A DNA stretch of 6,776 nt from a virus (taxonomy: Duplodnaviria; Heunggongvirae; Uroviricota; Caudoviricetes), in the IMG/VR virus record IMGVR_UViG_2654587674_000004. One strand, 5' to 3'. The notes beneath the pieces were generated by a model. The model ran no database searches. It saw only the letters and a program-made list of their open reading frames with translations, and had not been told where the DNA came from. This document shows, in pieces, positions 1-6,776 of this stretch. How positions within the stretch are numbered: the first letter of the stretch is position 1; each line of letters opens with the position of its first letter. The position numbers and the translations under genes are program-made.

Positions 1-13
1 TTGTGGAGTGGAT

Positions 14-1288
14 ATGGCAGCAGTAAAAATCTCAGGTGTGCTGAAAGATTGTGCGGGAAAACCAATACAGAACTGCACTATTCAACTGAAGGCAAAGCGT
101 AACAGCACCACGGTACTGGTGAACACGGTGGCCTCTGAAAATCCGGATGAAGCCGGGCGTTACAGCATGGATGTTGAGCATGGCCAGTACAGCGTCATCC
201 TGCTGGTTGAAGGTTTTCCGCCTTCACATGCCGGGACCATTACCGTCTATGAAGGCTCCAGACCAGGTACGCTGAATGATTTTCTCGGTGCCATGACGGA
301 AGAGGATGTCATGCCGGAGGCATTGCGTCGTTTTGAGGCAATGGTGGAAGAAGTGGCACGCAACGCCGAAGCCGCCTCTCAGAGCGCAGCGGCGGCAAAG
401 AAATCCGAAACTGCAGCGGCATCATCGAAGAACGCGGCGAAAACCTCAGAAACGAATGCAGCTAATAGTGCACAGGCGGCAGCGACCTCAAAGACTGCAT
501 CGGCAAACTCAGCGACAGCAGCCAAAAAATCAGAAACCAACGCGAAAAACAGTGAGACAGCCGCAAAGACGAGCGAAACCAACGCAAAGTCCAGCCAGAC
601 GGCAGCGAAAACCAGCGAAACGAATGCCAAAGCCAGTGAAACTGCGGCAAAAAACAGCCAGGCTGCAGCAGCTGAAAGCGAGAGCGCGGCAGCCGGTTCT
701 GCGACTTCAGCAGCTGGATCAGCAACTGCTGCGGCTAACAGCCAGAAAGCTGCGAAGACGAGTGAAACTAACGCAAAGTCCAGCCAGACGGCAGCGAAGA
801 CCAGCGAAACGAATGCCAAAGCCAGTGAAACTGCGGCGAAAAGCAGTCAGGATGCAGCGGCCCAAAGCGAGAGTGCCGCAGCCAGTTCTGCAAGCGCGGC
901 GGCTGCTTCTGCCACTGCATCAGCTAACAGTCAAAAAGCAGCAAAAACCAGTGAAACCAACGCAAAGGTGAGCGAAACAGCGGCTGCGAACTCAGCGAAA
1001 GCATCGGCAGCAAGCCAGACGGCAGCTAAAGCAAGCGAAGATGCAGCCAGAGAGTACGCAAGCCAGGCTGCGGAGCCGTATAAATATGTCTTACAGCCGC
1101 TGCCTGATGTGTGGATACCATTTAACGATTCGCTGGATATGATTACGGGCTTTTCGCCATCATATAAAAAAATTGTTATTGGTGATGATGAAATAACGAT
1201 GCCTGGCGACAAGGTTGTTAAGTTTAAACGACAGGGACGGATAATTTTGGTTTTACCTATGGAAAGTTTGTCTGCAACGATTCTCTGA
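14..1288 (+). CDS. stf: Side tail fibre protein, Stf family: N-terminal tail-attachment domain plus Ala/Ser/Thr-rich repetitive shaft. At about 425 aa it is short for this family and may be truncated or split from the next ORF.
   Basis: The N-terminus (MAAVKISGVLKDCAGKPIQNCTIQLKAKRNSTTVLVNTVASENPDEAGRYSMDVEHGQYSVILLVEGFPPSHAGTITVYEG...) matches my recollection of the conserved N-terminus of lambda Stf and the K-12 prophage Stf homologues. GGAG at 5-8 sits 5 nt upstream of ATG 14; the ORF track's GTG at 8 is the less likely start. The body is KTSETNAK-type repeats. Confidence 0.8.
   Translation: MAAVKISGVLKDCAGKPIQNCTIQLKAKRNSTTVLVNTVASENPDEAGRYSMDVEHGQYSVILLVEGFPPSHAGTITVYEGSRPGTLNDFLGAMTEEDVMPEALRRFEAMVEEVARNAEAASQSAAAAKKSETAAASSKNAAKTSETNAANSAQAAATSKTASANSATAAKKSETNAKNSETAAKTSETNAKSSQTAAKTSETNAKASETAAKNSQAAAAESESAAAGSATSAAGSATAAANSQKAAKTSETNAKSSQTAAKTSETNAKASETAAKSSQDAAAQSESAAASSASAAAASATASANSQKAAKTSETNAKVSETAAANSAKASAASQTAAKASEDAAREYASQAAEPYKYVLQPLPDVWIPFNDSLDMITGFSPSYKKIVIGDDEITMPGDKVVKFKRQGRIILVLPMESLSATIL
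571..968. repeat. Intragenic tandem duplication in the stf shaft: 189-bp (63-codon) unit, two full copies plus the start of a third, embedded in a wider low-complexity region (about 370-1060)
   Basis: The motif ag(c/t)gaaac(c/t)aacgcaaagtcc recurs at 571, 760 and 950 (period 189). The encoded 63-aa units are near-identical (KSSQTAAKTSETNAKASETAAK...ANSQKAAKTSETNA). Confidence 0.85.
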
Positions 1289-1311
1289 TTGGGCAAACCT
1301 CAGCCATTAAT

Positions 1312-2217
1312 ATGGCATCAATTGCTGCAACAAAGTCAGTTGATGTCTCAGGCGATAATAAACACGTGACAACCTCATGTCGTTTTAAAACAGAACTGCA
1401 GGTAAGGTTGCGTATCCGGTTTGATAAATATGACGGTAGCGCAACAACTTTTCTTGGTGATGCGTATATTGATACACAAACGCTTGAAATTAATATGACA
1501 GGCGGTGCTGCCTCAAGGATTACAGCGAGAGTCAGAAAGGACGAAGCTACCGGATGGATTTTTGCAGAGGCAACAATTCAGGCAATTGATGGGGAGTTAA
1601 AAATAGGCTCTCAGATACAGTATTCTCCTAAGCAGAGCGGGGCAACCGTATCTGGTGACTATATTTATCTGGCCACCCCACAAGTAGAAGATGGGCCTTG
1701 TGTATCATCTTTTATTATATCAGGAGCGACGGCGGCGACCCGCGCAAGCGATATAGTTACAGTTCCAATTAAGAATAATCTTTATAATCTTCCTTTTACG
1801 GTTCTTTGTGAGGTACATAAGAACTGGTATAAAACGCCAAATGCAGCGCCACGTGTTTTTGATACCGGCGGTCATCAAACCGGAGCGGCTATTATTCTTG
1901 GCTTCGGTCGTTCAACAGATTACGACGGATTTCCTTATTGCGATATTGGAGGAGCTAACAGACGGGTAAACGAAAACGCATCGCTTGAAAAAATGGTTAT
2001 GGGGATGCGTGTAAAGTCAGAGCAGTCTACGTGCTCAGTAAGTAACGGGCATATATCCAGCGAAACAAAAACCACATGGTCCTGTATTCAGAACACCGCA
2101 ATTATCCGTATTGGAGGCCAGACTACAGCCGGGTTACGTCATTTATTTGGTCATGTCAGGAATTTCAGAATATGGCACAAGGCATTGACTGATGCTCAGG
2201 TGGGGGAGTCAATCTAA
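1312..2217 (+). CDS. Tail-fibre distal / receptor-binding protein with a C-terminal concanavalin-A-like (LamG-type) jelly-roll motif; possibly the distal part of a split tail fibre
   Basis: The C-terminal segment ...GLRHLFGHVRNFRIWHKALTDAQV fits the characteristic closing strand of LamG/ConA-like lectin domains (F-x-G-x-h-x-x-h-R-I-[YW]-x-[KR]-A-L-[ST]). Its reading frame is open from 1228, overlapping the 3' end of stf. Composition is beta-rich and Gly/Thr/Ser-rich. Confidence 0.6.
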   Translation: MASIAATKSVDVSGDNKHVTTSCRFKTELQVRLRIRFDKYDGSATTFLGDAYIDTQTLEINMTGGAASRITARVRKDEATGWIFAEATIQAIDGELKIGSQIQYSPKQSGATVSGDYIYLATPQVEDGPCVSSFIISGATAATRASDIVTVPIKNNLYNLPFTVLCEVHKNWYKTPNAAPRVFDTGGHQTGAAIILGFGRSTDYDGFPYCDIGGANRRVNENASLEKMVMGMRVKSEQSTCSVSNGHISSETKTTWSCIQNTAIIRIGGQTTAGLRHLFGHVRNFRIWHKALTDAQVGESI

Positions 2218-2498
2218 TGAAAGATTTAACACTCAAATTTGCCGACAGGGCCGACTTTTCGGCCTTTATGGAGAGTATTGGCTATTATGATGACGAGTCG
2301 ATGCAGGATGATATTCTTATTGACGTGATAGGTAACGTGTACAAAGAAACCGGAGAACTGACTGAAGATGGCGAACCGGTATGTGTTAAGGAAGACGGAT
2401 ATTTTGTAAACGTGCGCATCATTAATGATTCGCAAATATCGTCATTATTCGATGAATACGTGGTTGCTGTTGAGCATCAACTTCGTGGCTGGATGTGA
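2217..2498 (+). CDS. Small acidic hypothetical protein (93 aa), translationally coupled to the upstream gene; function unknown (possibly a fibre-associated chaperone or adaptor)
   Basis: The stop/start overlap TAATG at 2215-2219 couples it to the upstream ORF. The protein is strongly acidic (many D/E) with no predicted transmembrane segment. I do not recognise the family. Confidence 0.5.
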   Translation: MKDLTLKFADRADFSAFMESIGYYDDESMQDDILIDVIGNVYKETGELTEDGEPVCVKEDGYFVNVRIINDSQISSLFDEYVVAVEHQLRGWM

Positions 2499-2507
2499 GG
2501 AAGAAAA

Positions 2508-3548
2508 ATGGCTACATCGACAGTAATTCCTGATGACATCAAAACGCTAAAATCCGACGTTAGCAAATTAAAAAACGATCAAGGAAGCTACGCAACAAAA
2601 TTATATGTAGACAGCAAAGATGAAATCGTTGGTGACTGGTCTGCTTCATGGTATCAGCAGGTATTGCCAACTAGCGGAGCTATATTTGGGAGAAAACTCC
2701 GCTCAACTCACAGGACGGCAGGTGTTGAGGATGCGTATTGCGAACTATACCTCAAAAAATGGATAGACAGTCCAGGTAACGCAATGGCGCGCCTTAACCT
2801 GAACGATAACGGGACAAACATTTGCTGGGACTTTACCAACCTTTATGGCGGTACGATGATTTTTCCCGGTGACAGCGGATACCTCAAAATGGGTAACTGC
2901 CTTATGTCATACAGCAAGCGTGGAAGTAACGCGCTTATTAAATTTGATTACACCGACACATTACAGATCAAATATGCCAATCATGGGTCAACCATGACAT
3001 TAAACACACAGGGAACCGCTTATGCTGGTGTTACTGCTCAATTGTGGGGCAACTCCAGCCGTCCTGTTGTTTATGAAGTCGGTGTTGATGGTGGCGCTTA
3101 TATGTTCTATGCGCAGAAAAATACCGATAACACCTATATGTTAAGCGTTAATGGTGCATGTCATGCCACCGCATTTAACCAGCATTCCGACCGGGATCTG
3201 AAAGACAACATTCAGGTGATCGATAATGCAACCGACCGCATCCGTAAAATGAACGGCTATACATACACGCTTAAAGAAAACGGTATGCCCTATGCTGGTG
3301 TCATTGCACAGGAAGCTCTGGAAGCAATCCCAGAAGTTGTAGGTTCCGCAATGAAATATCAGGACGGTGCAAGCGGATCGGAAGGTGAAGAAGGTGAACG
3401 TTATTACACAGTAGATTATTCTGGTGTTACTGGCTTGCTTGTTCAGGTAGCCAGAGAGTCAGACGACAGAATAACAGCACTGGAAGAAGAAAATGCAGAA
3501 TTAAAACAAAGATTATCTGCAATTGAGGCGACGCTTGCGTCTAAATAA
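2508..3548 (+). CDS. Tail fibre / tailspike-like protein with a C-terminal intramolecular chaperone auto-proteolytic domain (peptidase S74 / endosialidase-chaperone type)
   Basis: The C-terminal 120 aa (...FNQH-SDRDLKDNIQVIDNATDRIRKMNGYTYTLKENGMPYAGVIAQEALEAIPEVVGS...YYTVDYSGVTGLLVQVARESDDRITALEEENAELKQRLSAIEATLASK) match the conserved S-D-x-x-x-K-x-N-I...G(V/I)IAQE...PE(V/A)V...VDY...coiled-coil pattern of the self-cleaving chaperone domain of phage K1F endosialidase and T5 L-shaped fibre. The Shine-Dalgarno GAGGAAG lies 7 nt upstream of ATG 2508. Confidence 0.75.
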   Translation: MATSTVIPDDIKTLKSDVSKLKNDQGSYATKLYVDSKDEIVGDWSASWYQQVLPTSGAIFGRKLRSTHRTAGVEDAYCELYLKKWIDSPGNAMARLNLNDNGTNICWDFTNLYGGTMIFPGDSGYLKMGNCLMSYSKRGSNALIKFDYTDTLQIKYANHGSTMTLNTQGTAYAGVTAQLWGNSSRPVVYEVGVDGGAYMFYAQKNTDNTYMLSVNGACHATAFNQHSDRDLKDNIQVIDNATDRIRKMNGYTYTLKENGMPYAGVIAQEALEAIPEVVGSAMKYQDGASGSEGEEGERYYTVDYSGVTGLLVQVARESDDRITALEEENAELKQRLSAIEATLASK

Positions 3549-3552
3549 TATT

Positions 3553-3577
3553 AAGGGGCCGAGCGCCCCGTTTTATT
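3553..3577 (+). terminator. Rho-independent terminator after the tail-fibre gene block
   Basis: GGGGC (3555-3559) pairs with GCCCC (3565-3569) around a 5-nt loop, followed by the T-tract GTTTTATT (3570-3577), immediately after the TAA stop at 3546-3548. Confidence 0.7.
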
Positions 3578-3590
3578 GGGTAGGATGAAA

Positions 3591-3884
3591 ATGGATATAA
3601 CACCTTTCCTTCATGCACTTTGTGCTGTGGCTGCGCAGGTACTGGTTGGTCTTTTTACCGGAAACTGGGCTTACGGGGCGATAGCCGGTTGTACGTTCTT
3701 CATTGCTCGTGAACATACCCAGGCAGAATATCGCTGGATTGAAATGTTCGGGCATGGCAAGCGTATGAATATGCCGTGGTGGGGTGGTTTTGATCCGCGC
3801 GTGTGGGATGTGGCAAGCCTGATGGATTTTTCTGTGCCGGTGGTGGCTTGTCTGCTGGTCTGGCTGTTGGTTAATCGTGGGTGA
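3591..3884 (+). CDS. Small integral membrane protein (about 97 aa, 2-3 predicted TM helices), phage moron-like; function unknown
   Basis: Hydrophobic stretches ITPFLHALCAVAAQVLVGLFTGNWAYGAIAGCTFFIA and LMDFSVPVVACLLVWLLV. AGGA at 3582-3585 sits 5 nt upstream of ATG 3591, which I prefer over the track's TTG at 3576 because that lies inside the terminator T-tract. Confidence 0.5.
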   Translation: MDITPFLHALCAVAAQVLVGLFTGNWAYGAIAGCTFFIAREHTQAEYRWIEMFGHGKRMNMPWWGGFDPRVWDVASLMDFSVPVVACLLVWLLVNRG

Positions 3885-4037
3885 AAAAGGGAGTTGTAAA
3901 CGCAACACAGGAAGAGGTGCCGCTTCAGGTTGCTGGGAATAAGCGCCGGGGTCTGTTAAATCATGCCAATACGCTAATCGAGCCAGATATTGAGTAGCCT
4001 GCAGTCCGTCATGGCGTAATCGTTTTGTGATATGCTG

Positions 4038-4379: not shown

Positions 4380-5330
4380 GAGTAGCTAAAAAGATTTTTC
4401 GTTATGTATTAATGTATCTGTCACTTATTTTATAGTAAAGATGATATGCCAGCAAGAAATGGAGTAAATACTGTAATGTGTGCAGATACATTATTAATAA
4501 AGTCCTTATATGCTTCTTTAAAACAGCCGCTTTGGTGACTGGCTGCCAGTGCCTGTACATTATCTATAAGGTGTGATTCTGTCGCGCCATCAAAGTTTTT
4601 CGATTTTATTGCCTCAATCATTTCATTAAATATTGTGGGCTCATTATAATTTGTCGTAGTAGTTGCCGTAGCACCTGAAGAATGTATATTGATACTAGAA
4701 CCGGAAATTCCACTGACATGAATATTAGCTTCTTGTTTCATAAGAGGTAAACCATTCTCCATCTTGTATAGGTCACTATCTTGTAGCATCTGCAATGTGA
4801 TACGTACTGCTGCTAATAGTTGTTCTTGCTTTTTGAATAAGGAACACATCTGTTCTACAGACCAAAGCTGAACTGCATTTTCTTCGCATGTTTTTTTAGC
4901 TATATTTGGCACTTCCGAATCATAATTACCATAAACCCAAGTGTCCTTGAATCTTTCGATAATAGCTGTCAACGTTGGAAATTTACTGAAATCACTATTA
5001 ATGGATAGTAACTCATCAGACATATAAAGTGCCATATCTCTGCCTTCCGCATATACTGCTTCCACTTTATTCCGTGTTGCAAATGGTATTCTTGAAATAA
5101 AACGAAAATCCTCTTCATTTTTTAAATGGACCCAGTCTTTATCAAAACGGCTAAATTCGTACCCTATCGATAACAGTCTACTTATATATTGGGCTACTGA
5201 TTCCAAATCTTTTCTTATGTCCAAAGTATTACTCCTGCTTGTCAACCGAGTCTGTCGGTTTTCTTACAAATGGCTTGTCTTTAAAGTTCTGATTAAAAAG
5301 ACGCTAACCAATACTTAATAATACATGAAA
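4380..5330. other. AT-rich island of foreign-looking composition containing the orphan gene
   Basis: Hand counts on 60-nt lines inside 4441-5040 give about 30% GC, against about 50% in the tail-fibre and sit genes on either side. Confidence 0.7.
4430..5224 (-). CDS. Orphan hypothetical protein (264-271 aa) in an AT-rich island: helical N-terminal region, Ser/Thr/Gly-rich linker and hydrophobic C-terminal tail. Candidate accessory cargo (defence/exclusion, toxin or effector); function unassigned.
   Basis: Longest ORF is 4430-5245 with a TTG start. I prefer the in-frame TTG at 5222-5224 because AGGAG (minus strand, plus coordinates 5232-5236) lies 7 nt upstream of it; there is no in-frame ATG until about residue 71. 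The C-terminus AHITVFTPFLAGISSLL is hydrophobic and the linker reads HVSGISGSSINIHSSGATATTTT. I recognise no family. Confidence 0.6.
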   Translation of the reverse strand: MDIRKDLESVAQYISRLLSIGYEFSRFDKDWVHLKNEEDFRFISRIPFATRNKVEAVYAEGRDMALYMSDELLSINSDFSKFPTLTAIIERFKDTWVYGNYDSEVPNIAKKTCEENAVQLWSVEQMCSLFKKQEQLLAAVRITLQMLQDSDLYKMENGLPLMKQEANIHVSGISGSSINIHSSGATATTTTNYNEPTIFNEMIEAIKSKNFDGATESHLIDNVQALAASHQSGCFKEAYKDFINNVSAHITVFTPFLAGISSLL

Positions 5331-5696: not shown

Positions 5697-6554
5697 CTAA
5701 TTGGGGGATAACAGATCCTGTCTATGAGCGTTTCCCTTTGTGCGTGCGTTGAAACTGATAACGGTAAACGTCATGATGAACACAACCGCGAATAAGACGA
5801 CAATCGTCGGAGCTGGTGCGCTGTCGATAAAAAAGGACAGCCAAACACCAGTCATTGAGACTATTACCGATATGCCAGTCGCCAGTAGGAGTGCAATATG
5901 AAAGCGTTGTGTCAGGAGTACCGCAATGGCGCCAGGCGCAATGAGCAGAGAAATGGAGAGAATGATACCTACTGCTTTCAGCGTCGCCACAATGGTCAGG
6001 GAAACCATGCACAGCAGCCCATAATGCAGCCATCGCGTATGCAAACCGCTTACCTGCGCCTGTTGATAATCAAAGCTGAACAGCAAAAAATCCCGCCATT
6101 TTACGCTAATAACAAGTGTAACCAGCCCGGCAATAATCATCGTCTGGATTATATCGCCGATGGTTACCCCGAGCATGTCGCCGAAAAGAATATGGTCAAG
6201 ATGTATGTCTGGTTTGACTGCAATATACAAGATCAGACCTGCGGCAAACATGCCAGAAAAAACAATCCCCATCACTGTATCTTGCTTGATTCGGCTGTTG
6301 TCTTTCAGGTATCCCGTCGCCACCGCGCAGAATACTCCGGCGATAAATGCCCCTGTAGCCAGAGGTAACCCCAGAATCCAGGCAAGCACGATGCCAGGAA
6401 AAACCGCATGACTCATCGCGTCACCCATCAGTGCCCAACCTTTCAGGACCAGAAAGACCGACAGCAGCGCACAGGGTATGGAAACTACCAGTGAAATCAG
6501 CAGTGCGTGACTCATAAAGGTGAACTGCAGTGGCTCCAGTAATAATGCCATCAT
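5697..6554 (-). CDS. sitD: ABC-3 family Mn/Fe transporter permease, SitD/MntD-like
   Basis: 285-aa polytopic membrane protein with the ABC-3 permease pattern (...DAMSHAVFPG..., ...ILFGDMLGVTIGDI...). Its start overlaps the stop of a second upstream permease in an ATGA arrangement (6551-6554), as in sitC-sitD type operons. The SitD versus MntD/other ABC-3 assignment is from context and recall. Confidence 0.8.
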   Translation of the reverse strand: MMALLLEPLQFTFMSHALLISLVVSIPCALLSVFLVLKGWALMGDAMSHAVFPGIVLAWILGLPLATGAFIAGVFCAVATGYLKDNSRIKQDTVMGIVFSGMFAAGLILYIAVKPDIHLDHILFGDMLGVTIGDIIQTMIIAGLVTLVISVKWRDFLLFSFDYQQAQVSGLHTRWLHYGLLCMVSLTIVATLKAVGIILSISLLIAPGAIAVLLTQRFHIALLLATGISVIVSMTGVWLSFFIDSAPAPTIVVLFAVVFIMTFTVISFNARTKGNAHRQDLLSPN

Positions 6555-6776
6555 GAGCGATCCTCCAGCGCTTTATGCGCACGCCGACGATTTGCCAAAA
6601 GCCCATGGGTGGGCGCAAATACAAATGCTAAAAGAAACAGCAGTGTCTGCGCCACCACGATGATTCCACCTGTCGCGCCGTCCAGAAAGTAACTGACCCA
6701 CGCGCCGAGGAAACTGGTTACACTGCCAATAGTTACAGCAATTATGAGCAGGCGGGGAAAACGATCGGTTAACAAC
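6551..6776 (-). CDS. sitC: ABC-3 family Mn/Fe transporter permease, SitC/MntC-like; 3' portion only, the gene continues beyond the window end
   Basis: The C-terminal 74 aa are open to the window edge (...SYFLDGATGGIIVVAQTLLFLLAFVFAPTHGLLANRRRAHKALEDRS), typical of an ABC-3 permease C-terminus. The TGA stop overlaps the sitD ATG. Confidence 0.7.
   Translation of the reverse strand, partial: LLTDRFPRLLIIAVTIGSVTSFLGAWVSYFLDGATGGIIVVAQTLLFLLAFVFAPTHGLLANRRRAHKALEDRS

Follow-up and report, generated by a model that had tools for sequence, protein, structure and literature searches.

A small tail-fibre protein with an S74 chaperone domain, encoded by the third gene of a fibre cassette in a lambdoid prophage

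T5 pb1, K1F endoNF and gp37 of Salmonella phage S16 end in an intramolecular chaperone domain (CIMCD) of about 120 to 135 aa, which starts with a Ser residue, has a Lys five positions later, and closes with a long C-terminal helix. In T5 pb1, this domain terminates the lateral fibre of a siphovirus. Mature pb1 ends at residue 1263, and the mutation S1264A blocks cleavage (PMC4690869). The related protein MyRF is cut between P586 and S587, as determined by mass spectrometry, and its S587/K592 pair is equivalent to S911/K916 of endoNF (PMC8326128). Virion cryo-EM maps of related fibres are without the S74 domain (PMC12143355).

Two-protein lateral fibres are found in phages DT57C (LtfA/LtfB) and phiEco32 (gp14/gp15). 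The second protein in each pair has no virion anchor, is presumed to be carried by the first, and has an S74 end (PMC4728585, PMC10713586). Similarly, KP32-type Klebsiella podophages are reported to have a secondary receptor-binding protein, RBP2, whose short N-terminal docking peptide is conserved and whose bodies can be exchanged, together with a branching domain in RBP1 (PMC13352976). The RBPseg class TC7 combines an N-terminal coiled coil with a C-terminal peptidase S74 domain, and its members share only about 26% identity (PMC12143355).

A three-gene arrangement is present in T5-like phages with two-gene lateral fibre loci, such as AKFV33 and IrisVonRoten, in which LtfC or J is followed in order by a large fibre gene with a conserved junction and a head (gene 1), a gene for a 92-aa protein (gene 2), and a gene whose product has a characteristic N-terminal peptide and a C-terminal S74 domain (gene 3). 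The same cassette corresponds to the "distal subunits" of the lateral fibres of Drexlerviridae and Queuovirinae in the BASEL papers. Our searches found no experimental dissection of the cassette for AKFV33, IrisVonRoten, or the Drexlerviridae and Queuovirinae phages.

The window analyzed here is a stretch of 6,776 nucleotides from IMG/VR virus record IMGVR_UViG_2654587674_000004. Coordinates are those of the window, and every feature lies on its plus strand except a deletion junction, to which no strand applies. The window contains the cassette in a temperate lambdoid prophage, and it differs from the AKFV33, IrisVonRoten and BASEL loci in that gene 1 has a lambda-Stf-type N-terminus and gene 3 has a different, shorter body allele. 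Gene 3 (positions 2508 to 3548) encodes a 346-aa tail-fibre protein, a 38.1-kDa precursor with a C-terminal S74 intramolecular chaperone domain. Its product is probably a trimeric lateral-tail-fibre subunit of a phage 21/Tritos-like prophage that is cleaved by its S74 domain and that would serve as an optional accessory receptor-binding subunit.

The gene 3 protein is not novel. It is 99.1% identical to TRITO_21 of phage Tritos, it corresponds over its full length to PHROG 4563 ("tail fiber protein"), and near-identical database proteins already carry the S74 domain. Architectures of about 310 to 350 aa are abundant, as PHROG 4563 and sequence clusters whose members number in the thousands show. 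The product is thus of an ordinary, already annotated kind, namely a small tail-fibre protein with a self-removing folding domain. The cassette genes are tightly packed. A ribosome-binding site read from the sequence (GAGGAAG, positions 2497 to 2503) is located 4 nt ahead of the gene 3 ATG, and a terminator-like hairpin (GGGGCCGAGCGCCCC, positions 3555 to 3577), followed by a T-run, lies 7 nt past the stop codon. Searchable publications yielded no experimental work on this protein or on others of the gene 3 type; a search on phage Tritos returned nothing, and one for a lambdoid second fibre with an S74 domain returned general statements only.

A preliminary description of this DNA identified the C-terminal 120 aa as a chaperone domain, and the Pfam search that it proposed supports this assignment. 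The PF13884 (Peptidase_S74) profile aligns positions 1-57 of its 58 positions to residues 227-278, at 52.8 bits (E = 4.7e-14) against a gathering cutoff of 22 bits, and this significant match starts exactly at Ser227. Precomputed PF13884 annotation is present on all close homologues. Because a single-sequence search of the PDB with gene 3 gave only a marginal match, to 6f45, a profile search was needed. A profile built from 20 homologues matches the chaperone-bearing C-terminus of S16 gp37 (6f45, E = 2e-8) and the ICA domain of MyRF (7dc3, E = 1e-3).

Further features of the domain (residues 227-346; positions 3186 to 3545; 13.2 kDa) are consistent with this identity. Ser227 (codon TCC, positions 3186 to 3188), which aligns to the first position of PF13884, is the predicted nucleophile, and Lys232 (codon AAA, positions 3201 to 3203) is the predicted general base of a Ser-Lys dyad. 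Their i/i+5 spacing matches that of S911/K916 in endoNF, S587/K592 in MyRF, and S1264/K1269 in T5 pb1. Residues S227, D228, L231, and K232 are invariant across 72 diverse homologues, and S227 and K232 are also invariant in all 68 intact copies of gene 3 (the window and 67 IMG/VR prophage loci, which together encode 45 distinct proteins). The S74 part has a dN/dS of 0.08-0.12, with dS up to 1.3, and the gene 3 family is under strong purifying selection. The part predicted to be released extends 120 aa to the stop codon, and the median for 115 diverse relatives is likewise 120 aa. A long helix is predicted at its C-terminus (residues 304-345). In the S74 family, where the domain spans about 120-150 aa, such a helix builds the trimeric coiled coil.

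The reading frame contains FNQH followed by SDRDLKDNI, as quoted in the preliminary description, which placed cleavage N-terminal to Ser227. This placement agrees with the experimental precedents of MyRF (PMC8326128) and T5 pb1 (PMC4690869). As in pb1, endoNF and S16 gp37, the predicted cut is N-terminal to the Ser. By homology, scission between His226 and Ser227 would yield a mature product of 24.9 kDa and a released product of 13.2 kDa. Unlike pb1 and endoNF, which have a folding-sensing Arg at -14 (R1250 and R897, respectively) that belongs to the upstream trimeric beta-structure and makes cleavage depend on correct folding, gene 3 has Ser at the corresponding residue 213, and its nearest invariant Arg is R185, at -42. 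This sensor is not universal in the S74 family, because MyRF likewise is without such stalk contacts (PMC8326128).

The mature part would comprise 226 aa, far less than that of pb1 (1263 aa) or endoNF (910 aa). To call this length unusually short, as was done originally, is an overstatement. Predicted mature lengths among the 115 diverse relatives have a median of 488 aa, and 226 aa does fall in the lower fifth, yet 18% of these relatives have mature parts of 226 aa or less.

Several parts can be distinguished within the mature protein. Residues 1-26 (positions 2508 to 2585), in which a conserved peptide at the N-terminus (MATSTVIPDDIKTLK...) leads into a coiled-coil-like repeat, are proposed to be a docking module. 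Variation is concentrated in two patches. Patch A (residues 36-110; positions 2613 to 2837) is a predicted beta-domain in which 79% of sites vary among the 45 distinct proteins, and whose alleles are replaced wholesale, with dN of 0.5-0.6. Patch B (residues 170-226; positions 3015 to 3185), in which 63% of sites vary, is a knob whose profile matches the T4 gp34 repeat domain (E = 4e-6), and it is predicted to be the distal tip after cleavage. Specificity probably resides in these two regions. The domain upstream of S74, a gp34-type knob, differs from both the "bullet" of pb1 and a structurally known triple beta-helix. In phage ChristophMerian, the gene 3 body is the covalent distal half of a single-chain lateral fibre.

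AF2 monomer models of gene 3 are of low to moderate confidence. The model based on a 20-sequence alignment (pLDDT 52) was set aside, and that based on 72 sequences (pLDDT 66.5) was used for secondary structure and domain boundaries only. It predicts a helix at residues 9-26, strands at 58-118 (pLDDT 71-84), the segment at 170-226 (pLDDT 84-91), and, in the S74 part, short helices, a hairpin, and the long C-terminal helix (pLDDT 72-90). A Foldseek search of the PDB with this model returned no match at E <= 1e-3. Its top match was T4 gp34 (E = 0.04), which merely echoes the sequence-profile match. The model represents an isolated chain of what would be an intertwined trimer.

Gene 1 is interrupted in the window. 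Its N-terminal fragment (positions 14 to 1288) is a homologue of lambda-Stf-type side tail fibres (PF08400, E = 1e-65; PHROG 1419 positions 1-406 of 793). The fragment includes the phage_tail_N domain, a repeat shaft rich in Ala, Ser, and Thr, and 47 residues from the start of the conserved junction, and it ends in a frameshifted tail and a premature stop. The frameshift is caused by a 172-bp deletion between positions 1230 and 1231 (junction at 1226 to 1235). In a blastn comparison with Tritos, window 1-1230 corresponds to L001 6325-7551 and window 1231-3915 to L001 7724-10410. The missing 172 bp are present in L002. The C-terminal remnant (positions 1231 to 2217; residual open reading frame 1312-2217) is an out-of-frame, lectin-like head of the GTA_spike_fiber type (PHROG 1419 positions 490-793 of 793, E = 1e-141). 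Both Tritos and E. coli strain 50579417 have intact versions of gene 1, with 790 or 791 aa. Gene 1 has its own head domain at its end: the Tritos version matches NCBIfam NF048003, a phage head spike fiber model, and the remnant in the window shows a weak match to Laminin_G_3. In phage EmilHeitz, which has a gene-2-like gene, cryo-EM revealed a lectin-like head at the distal end of a lateral fibre. The lambda Stf/Tfa system has PF08400 as its fibre anchor and, downstream, a gene for a Tfa-type assembly chaperone. The PF08400 match is to gene 1 and not to gene 3, and no Tfa-family match was found on gene 2 or gene 3, so gene 3 does not belong to the lambda Stf/Tfa group.

The deletion was found in none of the 77 IMG/VR loci with enough upstream sequence and in none of the complete E. 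coli genomes listed, so it is private to the window, where gene 1 is a pseudogene. Since the partner fibre gene is inactivated, a two-headed fibre could not be made from the locus as it stands. The original suggestion of a second receptor-binding protein beside Stf is plausible and reasonably inferred from relatives, in which gene 3 and an Stf-like fibre may together provide two specificities. The sit iron/manganese transporter, which travels as cargo of phage 21-type prophages, adjoins the locus. In a closely related chromosome, a DinI-like pseudogene lies downstream and IS200 lies upstream.

Perhaps, then, gene 3 in this prophage is a functionless remnant that is intact by chance and contributes to no consequential fibre. 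The private deletion in gene 1, the neighboring DinI-like pseudogene and IS200 of the related chromosome, and the frameshifts at an A6 run in some gene 3 copies elsewhere all point in this direction. However, gene 3 of the window is intact, is 99% identical to the Tritos copy, and retains its ribosome-binding site and terminator, and the family is under strong purifying selection. Intact copies account for 67 of the 80 independent gene 3 loci. Decay of this kind seems somewhat unlikely, and it is compatible with a lateral-fibre subunit as the best explanation of gene 3, because it concerns the state of the locus and not the identity of the protein.

The cassette is found well beyond this prophage, in lambdoid, T1-like, 9g-like, and T5-like phages. 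It consists of gene 1 (a large lateral fibre with its own head), gene 2 (about 92 aa), and gene 3, whose product starts MxTxTVIP.DI..LK. This order is present in Tritos, Drexlerviridae, JenP1, KurtStettler, the T5-like L007, and IrisVonRoten. A scan of IMG/VR gave close relatives only, and the association of the peptide with the cassette was instead taken from coordinates in about 30 phage records, namely those listing the gene 3 N-terminus together with gene 2 or the gene 1 junction. These records share the same order and spacing, and among the listed coordinates the N-terminal peptide occurs solely directly downstream of gene 2. The peptide is retained in five phage lineages on bodies that range from 224 to 574 aa, some bearing an S74 domain and others not; examples are the protein of swan01, which has no S74 motif, and that of IrisVonRoten, with 574 aa.

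Gene 2 (positions 2217 to 2498) encodes an acidic protein of 93 aa (10.7 kDa, pI 4.05; PHROG 1361, E = 2e-46) whose function is unassigned and which always accompanies gene 1. Its homologues, in 183 phage records, hold the equivalent position in Drexlerviridae, Queuovirinae, T5-like, and lambdoid phages. Gene 3 is optional, since it is missing from phage 21, where gene 1 and gene 2 are both present.

This distribution also bears on how the gene 3 product might be attached. It could be an independent short fibre fixed directly to the tail tip (J, baseplate, or collar) rather than through the Stf-like fibre or gene 2, given that its docking partner is only predicted and that it has its own N-terminal coiled coil, as many autonomous fibres do. 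However, the lambdoid, T1-like, 9g-like, and T5-like phages that share this peptide have different tail tips. Next to it, they have only gene 2 and the gene 1 C-terminal module in common, and in the coordinates listed the peptide was seen only directly downstream of gene 2. Direct attachment to the tail tip is accordingly improbable, and a subunit carried by the lateral fibre is preferred.

Alleles of the gene 3 body are found with all four allele classes of the gene 1 head, in 11 of 16 possible class pairs, and the alleles of the two genes reassort. Correlations between the identities of modules were not taken as evidence of interaction, because they are confounded by linkage and shared ancestry. 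Two candidate relationships within the cassette were considered, of which the first is doubtful and the second was rejected. The first is that the near-invariant gene 1 junction (dN/dS about 0.02) is the docking site of gene 3. This junction diverges in IrisVonRoten, which has gene 3, as well as in phage 21, which does not, and prophages with a 62%-identical junction still keep gene 3. The second is that gene 2 is a co-varying chaperone of the gene 1 head. The head is swapped at 37-100% identity, and gene 2 stays at 88-100%.

The reassortment is pertinent to an annotation in the BASEL phages KurtStettler, VogelGryff, and KarlJaspers, in which the protein is termed a "putative lateral tail fiber chaperone". 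Because gene 1 itself carries no intramolecular chaperone, gene 3 might act in trans to assemble the upstream fibre and not be part of the virion. However, S74 domains act in cis on their own chain (PMC4690869, PMC8326128), and the body ahead of Ser227 shows hypervariability of the kind typical of receptor-binding domains. Moreover, in ChristophMerian this body is a covalent part of the fibre, at its distal end, phage 21 builds its gene 1 fibre without gene 3, and gene 3 alleles do not track those of the gene 1 head. A chaperone role in trans is thus very improbable. Least credible of all is a tailspike with enzymatic activity (a depolymerase, for example an endosialidase), which is suggested by the Pfam family name "chaperone of endosialidase" and by records labeled "endosialidase-like" and which we reject, because that name refers to the chaperone domain only, Pfam, NCBIfam, and PDB profile searches found no catalytic domain in residues 1-226, and 226 aa holding a coiled coil and a gp34-type knob leave no room for a beta-helix depolymerase.

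As a lateral-fibre subunit, the gene 3 product would mature in the manner of its S74-bearing homologues. Three C-terminal domains would associate through their long helices and template the folding of the upstream beta-structure, after which the Ser227/Lys232 dyad would cut each chain between His226 and Ser227. The 13.2-kDa chaperone would leave, and the 24.9-kDa mature subunit would stay. This subunit would consist of the conserved N-terminal peptide and short coiled coil (residues 1 to about 35), the hypervariable beta-domain (36-110), a conserved linker region, and the hypervariable gp34-type knob (170-226), which would become the free distal tip once the chaperone is gone. We infer that the N-terminal peptide would plug into a conserved module made up of the C-terminal part of the upstream Stf-like fibre, the 93-aa gene 2 protein, or both. 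The side fibre may thereby gain a second, independently exchangeable binding head, arranged either as a branch or in series.

This organization resembles that of DT57C and phiEco32 in having two fibre proteins, of which the second has an S74 end and no anchor, with variable receptor-binding regions in both. The gene 3 product shows the features of a secondary fibre in that it has no virion anchor and its short N-terminal module is conserved across differing bodies, and its putative attachment to the primary fibre, with a receptor specificity of its own, is supported indirectly by the invariable synteny, by the lack of gene 3 in phage 21, and by the independent reassortment of the variable regions. 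In contrast, the docking elements of DT57C and phiEco32 are not homologous to the gene 3 peptide. Homology to the docking modules of LtfB or phiEco32 gp15 was not detected, and DT57C matched only through an internal ltfA module (query residues 27-69). In addition, LtfA, the primary fibre of DT57C, has a terminal S74 domain of its own, which the lectin-like head at the end of gene 1 lacks, and descriptions of DT57C mention nothing equivalent to the 92-aa gene 2. The likeness to RBPseg class TC7 is one of architecture only, and that to the KP32-type pair, which involves unrelated proteins and another phage morphotype, is an analogy only.

Tentatively, the gene 3 peptide may constitute, with gene 2 and the highly constrained C-terminal module on gene 1, a universal plug and socket for interchangeable second receptor-binding heads on the lateral fibres of at least four siphovirus families (lambdoid, T1-like, 9g-like, and T5-like), with gene 2 as an adaptor or assembly factor. 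Such a device, which has a reasonable though less than even chance of existing in this form, would be distinct from the branching of DT57C and phiEco32 and is experimentally undescribed so far.

For the gene 3 protein itself, little changes, as databases already label it an S74-capped tail-fibre subunit. What is gained is a precise predicted processing site between His226 and Ser227, with a mature product of 25 kDa, and a map of the probable specificity regions at residues 36-110 and 170-226. The small protein is also recognized as the exchangeable third gene of a fibre cassette that spans several coliphage families. Should its N-terminal peptide prove to be a portable docking tag, host-range engineering in lambdoid, T1-like, and T5-like phages would gain a convenient handle.

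Gene 3, a 346-aa ORF on the plus strand at 2508-3548, contains the sequence quoted in the preliminary description, in which a C-terminal S74 chaperone domain beginning at Ser227 had been proposed. The Pfam HMM for Peptidase_S74 (PF13884) matches residues 227-278 over profile positions 1-57 of 58, with a score of 52.8 bits (gathering score 22) and E = 4.7e-14. Profile position 1 aligns to residue 227, so the S74 domain begins exactly at Ser227. A profile of 20 homologues also matched the chaperone-bearing C-terminus of gp37 from Salmonella phage S16 (6f45, E = 2e-8) and the ICA domain of MyRF (7dc3, E = 1e-3). Residues S227, D228, L231 and K232 are invariant in an alignment of 72 diverse homologues, and the codons for Ser227 (3186-3188) and Lys232 (3201-3203) were read from the plus strand of the window. 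Judged by sequence, dyad, position and length, gene 3 is a member of the S74, or C-terminal intramolecular chaperone domain, family.

Mass spectrometry mapped the cut in MyRF to the P586-S587 bond, and cleavage is abolished by S587A and K592A, the counterparts of which are S911 and K916 in endoNF (PMC8326128). In T5 pb1, the mature form comprises residues 970-1263, processing is blocked by S1264A, the serine is activated by K1269, and competition for the receptor is confined to the processed protein (PMC4690869). Because of these precedents, gene 3 is predicted to be cut between His226 and Ser227, which would yield a mature chain of 24.9 kDa and a released domain of 13.2 kDa (computed masses). 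An arginine at position -14, which couples cleavage to folding in pb1 and endoNF, was not found in gene 3, where residue 213 is Ser; MyRF likewise lacks such stalk contacts (PMC8326128). The S74 domain is absent from virion maps of fibres, and an N-terminal coiled coil plus a C-terminal S74 domain is a recognised fibre class (PMC12143355).

When 1.84 billion representatives were searched exhaustively, 10,902 proteins proved to share the C-terminal domain (E <= 1e-3). Of the best 150 matches, 115 extend across the cleavage site; in these, the median inferred mature length is 488 aa, with a lower quartile of 280 aa, and the median released part, at 120 aa, is exactly as long as that of gene 3. 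The mature part of gene 3 had been called unusually short. It is indeed shorter than in any S74 protein yet characterised, though unexceptional among sequences, as the mature part is at most 226 aa in 18% of these 115 relatives, some of the shortest of which may be fragments. PHROG 4563 ('tail fiber protein', 346 positions) covers gene 3 end to end, its NCBI name is 'tail fiber domain-containing protein', with PF13884 assigned, and the nearest cluster has 2132 member sequences; the protein is therefore already catalogued. TRITO_21, a protein of phage Tritos, is 99.1% identical to it. The S74 prediction was correct and well placed, for a domain that is ordinary and already annotated.

The anatomy of gene 3 was derived from the homologue alignment, an AF2 model (mean pLDDT 66.5, single chain only) and population data, with site variation counted among 45 distinct gene-3 proteins. 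Residues 1 to ~26 comprise a conserved peptide, MATSTVIPDDIKTLK..., that leads into a helix; in relatives, this region carries 'TLKSDVS'-type repeats in varying number. A beta-domain at residues 36-110 (79% of sites variable) is followed by a conserved region at 111-169 (24%) and a gp34-type knob at 170-226 (63%; pLDDT 84-91). Residues 173-223 match the repeated knob domain of T4 gp34 (E = 4e-6, profile of 20 homologues). The S74 domain, residues 227-346, is variable at 29% of sites, with dN/dS of 0.08-0.12 and dS up to 1.3. Removal of the chaperone would leave the variable knob as a free distal tip, in parallel with T5 pb1, in which receptor binding is unmasked by cleavage.

Gene 3 is intact at 346 aa in 67 of 80 independent IMG/VR loci. 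An A6 run at 2754-2759 (codons 83-84) is A7 in two IMG/VR loci (L082 and L090), which splits the gene into ORFs of 90 and 309 aa. Either the homopolymer is a hot-spot of slippage or a sequencing error recurs at this site. A 254-aa version that starts at Met93 is annotated in several large NCBI clusters (P0015, P0025 and others).

The gene belongs to a three-gene fibre cassette. In Tritos, J is followed by a 790-aa homologue of the lambda Stf side tail fibre (gene 1), a 93-aa gene 2, a 346-aa gene 3 and a 97-aa membrane protein. The order gene 1-gene 2-gene 3 recurs in Drexlerviridae contigs and swan01, Nonagvirus JenP1, Seuratvirus KurtStettler, T5-like IrisVonRoten and a T5-like contig, in the last directly after pb4 and LtfC. 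Gene-1 N-termini are lineage-specific, and all change at one same point to a common C-terminal region of ~430 aa, which opens with QPLPDVWIPFNDSLDMITGFSPSYKK... and matches NCBIfam NF048003 ('phage head spike fiber domain'). Constraint at the protein level is extreme over the first 82 residues of this module (pN 0.03-0.07, pS 0.63-0.86, dN/dS ~0.02). This junction occurs in 224 phage records, rV5-like myoviruses among them, and gene 2, homologous throughout these cassette phages, occurs in 183. Gene 3 lies immediately downstream at the expected spacing in all ~30 phage records that give coordinates for its N-terminus plus gene 2 or the junction.

Gene-3 proteins all start M[AV]T[SKV]T[VIA]IP.DI..LK, and their bodies differ. 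One type is 326-351 aa long with SD..LK at positions 215-227; the IrisVonRoten protein has 574 aa with SDSRLK at 464, that of KurtStettler 510 aa, and that of swan01 224 aa with the S74 motif absent. In ChristophMerian, a single 633-aa Stf-type lateral fibre has the gene-3 body (residues 7-339) as its covalent distal half, which makes this body a genuine fibre end. In classical phage 21, gene 1, gene 2, the membrane protein and sitDCBA are present and gene 3 is missing; gene 3 is therefore optional.

Gene 3 of KurtStettler, a BASEL phage (4926-6458 of its locus), is annotated 'putative lateral tail fiber chaperone' and is an odd fusion. It has SDRDLK at residue 208, and its S74 domain stops at ~residue 294 and gives way to Gly-rich sequence (GGAIGGLIGSWIGNGWGGNGGWGG) and then a tail rich in Cys. 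A second cassette allele family is found in E. coli prophages (L066, L071, L087 and ~15 other IMG/VR loci). Its gene 2 has 89 aa (36% identity), its junction is 62% identical and its gene-1 tail ends ...HLNGHIKNLRFWNRALSDTQLKEYV; it keeps a 346-aa gene 3 that starts with the same N-terminal peptide.

The window derives from an E. coli lambdoid prophage adjoining sitABCD. Compared with Tritos and E. coli strain 50579417, 172 bp are missing between 1230 and 1231, which frameshifts gene 1 (ORFs 14-1288 and 1312-2217) just inside the conserved junction, its most conserved stretch. Neither the 77 IMG/VR loci that extend far enough upstream nor the listed complete genomes have the deletion, which is therefore either specific to the source or an artefact of assembly. 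Gene 2 and gene 3 are intact, the latter with a ribosome binding site (GAGGAAG, 2497-2503) and a terminator-like hairpin beyond it (3555-3569). With its primary fibre gene a pseudogene, the locus in its present state cannot produce a two-headed fibre.

The Stf homologue of E. coli strain 50579417 (6014-8389) is one unbroken ORF of 791 codons. RefSeq splits it into a partial N-terminal pseudogene and, separately, a 416-aa 'phage head spike fiber domain-containing protein', which is probably an annotation artefact. The gene-1 shaft in the window (~380-1050) contains tandem repeats rich in Ala, Ser and Thr (KTSETNAKSSQTAAKTSETNAKASETAAK...); internal units of 231 bp are ~84% identical to one another. 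The length of the shaft differs widely among phage lineages.

Downstream, a 97-aa protein (3591-3884, plus strand; PHROG 1443, function unknown) is near-identical in Tritos (TRITO_22) and phage 21, the record of which labels it a putative membrane protein and gives it two transmembrane domains. A role in superinfection exclusion or lysogenic conversion is possible. Located between the fibre module and sitD, a 271-aa minus-strand ORF (4430-5245; hypothetical in RefSeq) gave no significant match to Pfam, PHROG or NCBIfam; in a related chromosome, its immediate upstream neighbour is a frameshifted DinI-like gene. The minus strand also encodes sitD (5697-6554) and the start of sitC (6551-6775). 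Because the phage 21 genome (4177-7273 of its locus) carries the sitABCD iron/manganese transporter as cargo in the equivalent position beside its fibre genes, the sit operon of the window is probably prophage-borne.

In working mode, gene 3 may be likened to LtfB, the secondary fibre of DT57C (PMC4728585, PMC10713586), although the docking elements are not homologous. The same cassette is present in 'two-ltf-gene' T5-like phages such as AKFV33, and the 'distal subunits' of BASEL siphoviruses, conserved only at the far N-terminus (PMC8594841), correspond to it.

Gene 3 had also been suggested to be a second receptor-binding protein that confers two specificities. Among near-identical prophages, the lectin-like gene-1 head falls into allele classes of ~100, 72, 48 and 37% identity, and gene-3 bodies range from 58 to 100%. 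Each of the four head classes is found alongside gene-3 body classes, and 11 of 16 possible class pairs occur. Such reassortment is what two separately exchangeable, putative receptor-binding modules would be expected to show, and it supports the suggestion for intact relatives. A role for gene 2 as a head-specific chaperone was rejected, because its identity remains at 88-100% across exchanges of the head. The gene-1 junction is a candidate docking site for gene 3; it diverges, however, in IrisVonRoten, which carries gene 3, and gene 3 is still present in prophages whose junction is 62% identical. Perhaps, and we offer this tentatively, the N-terminal peptide serves as a portable docking tag in a plug-and-socket fibre system that involves gene 2 and is shared across phage families.
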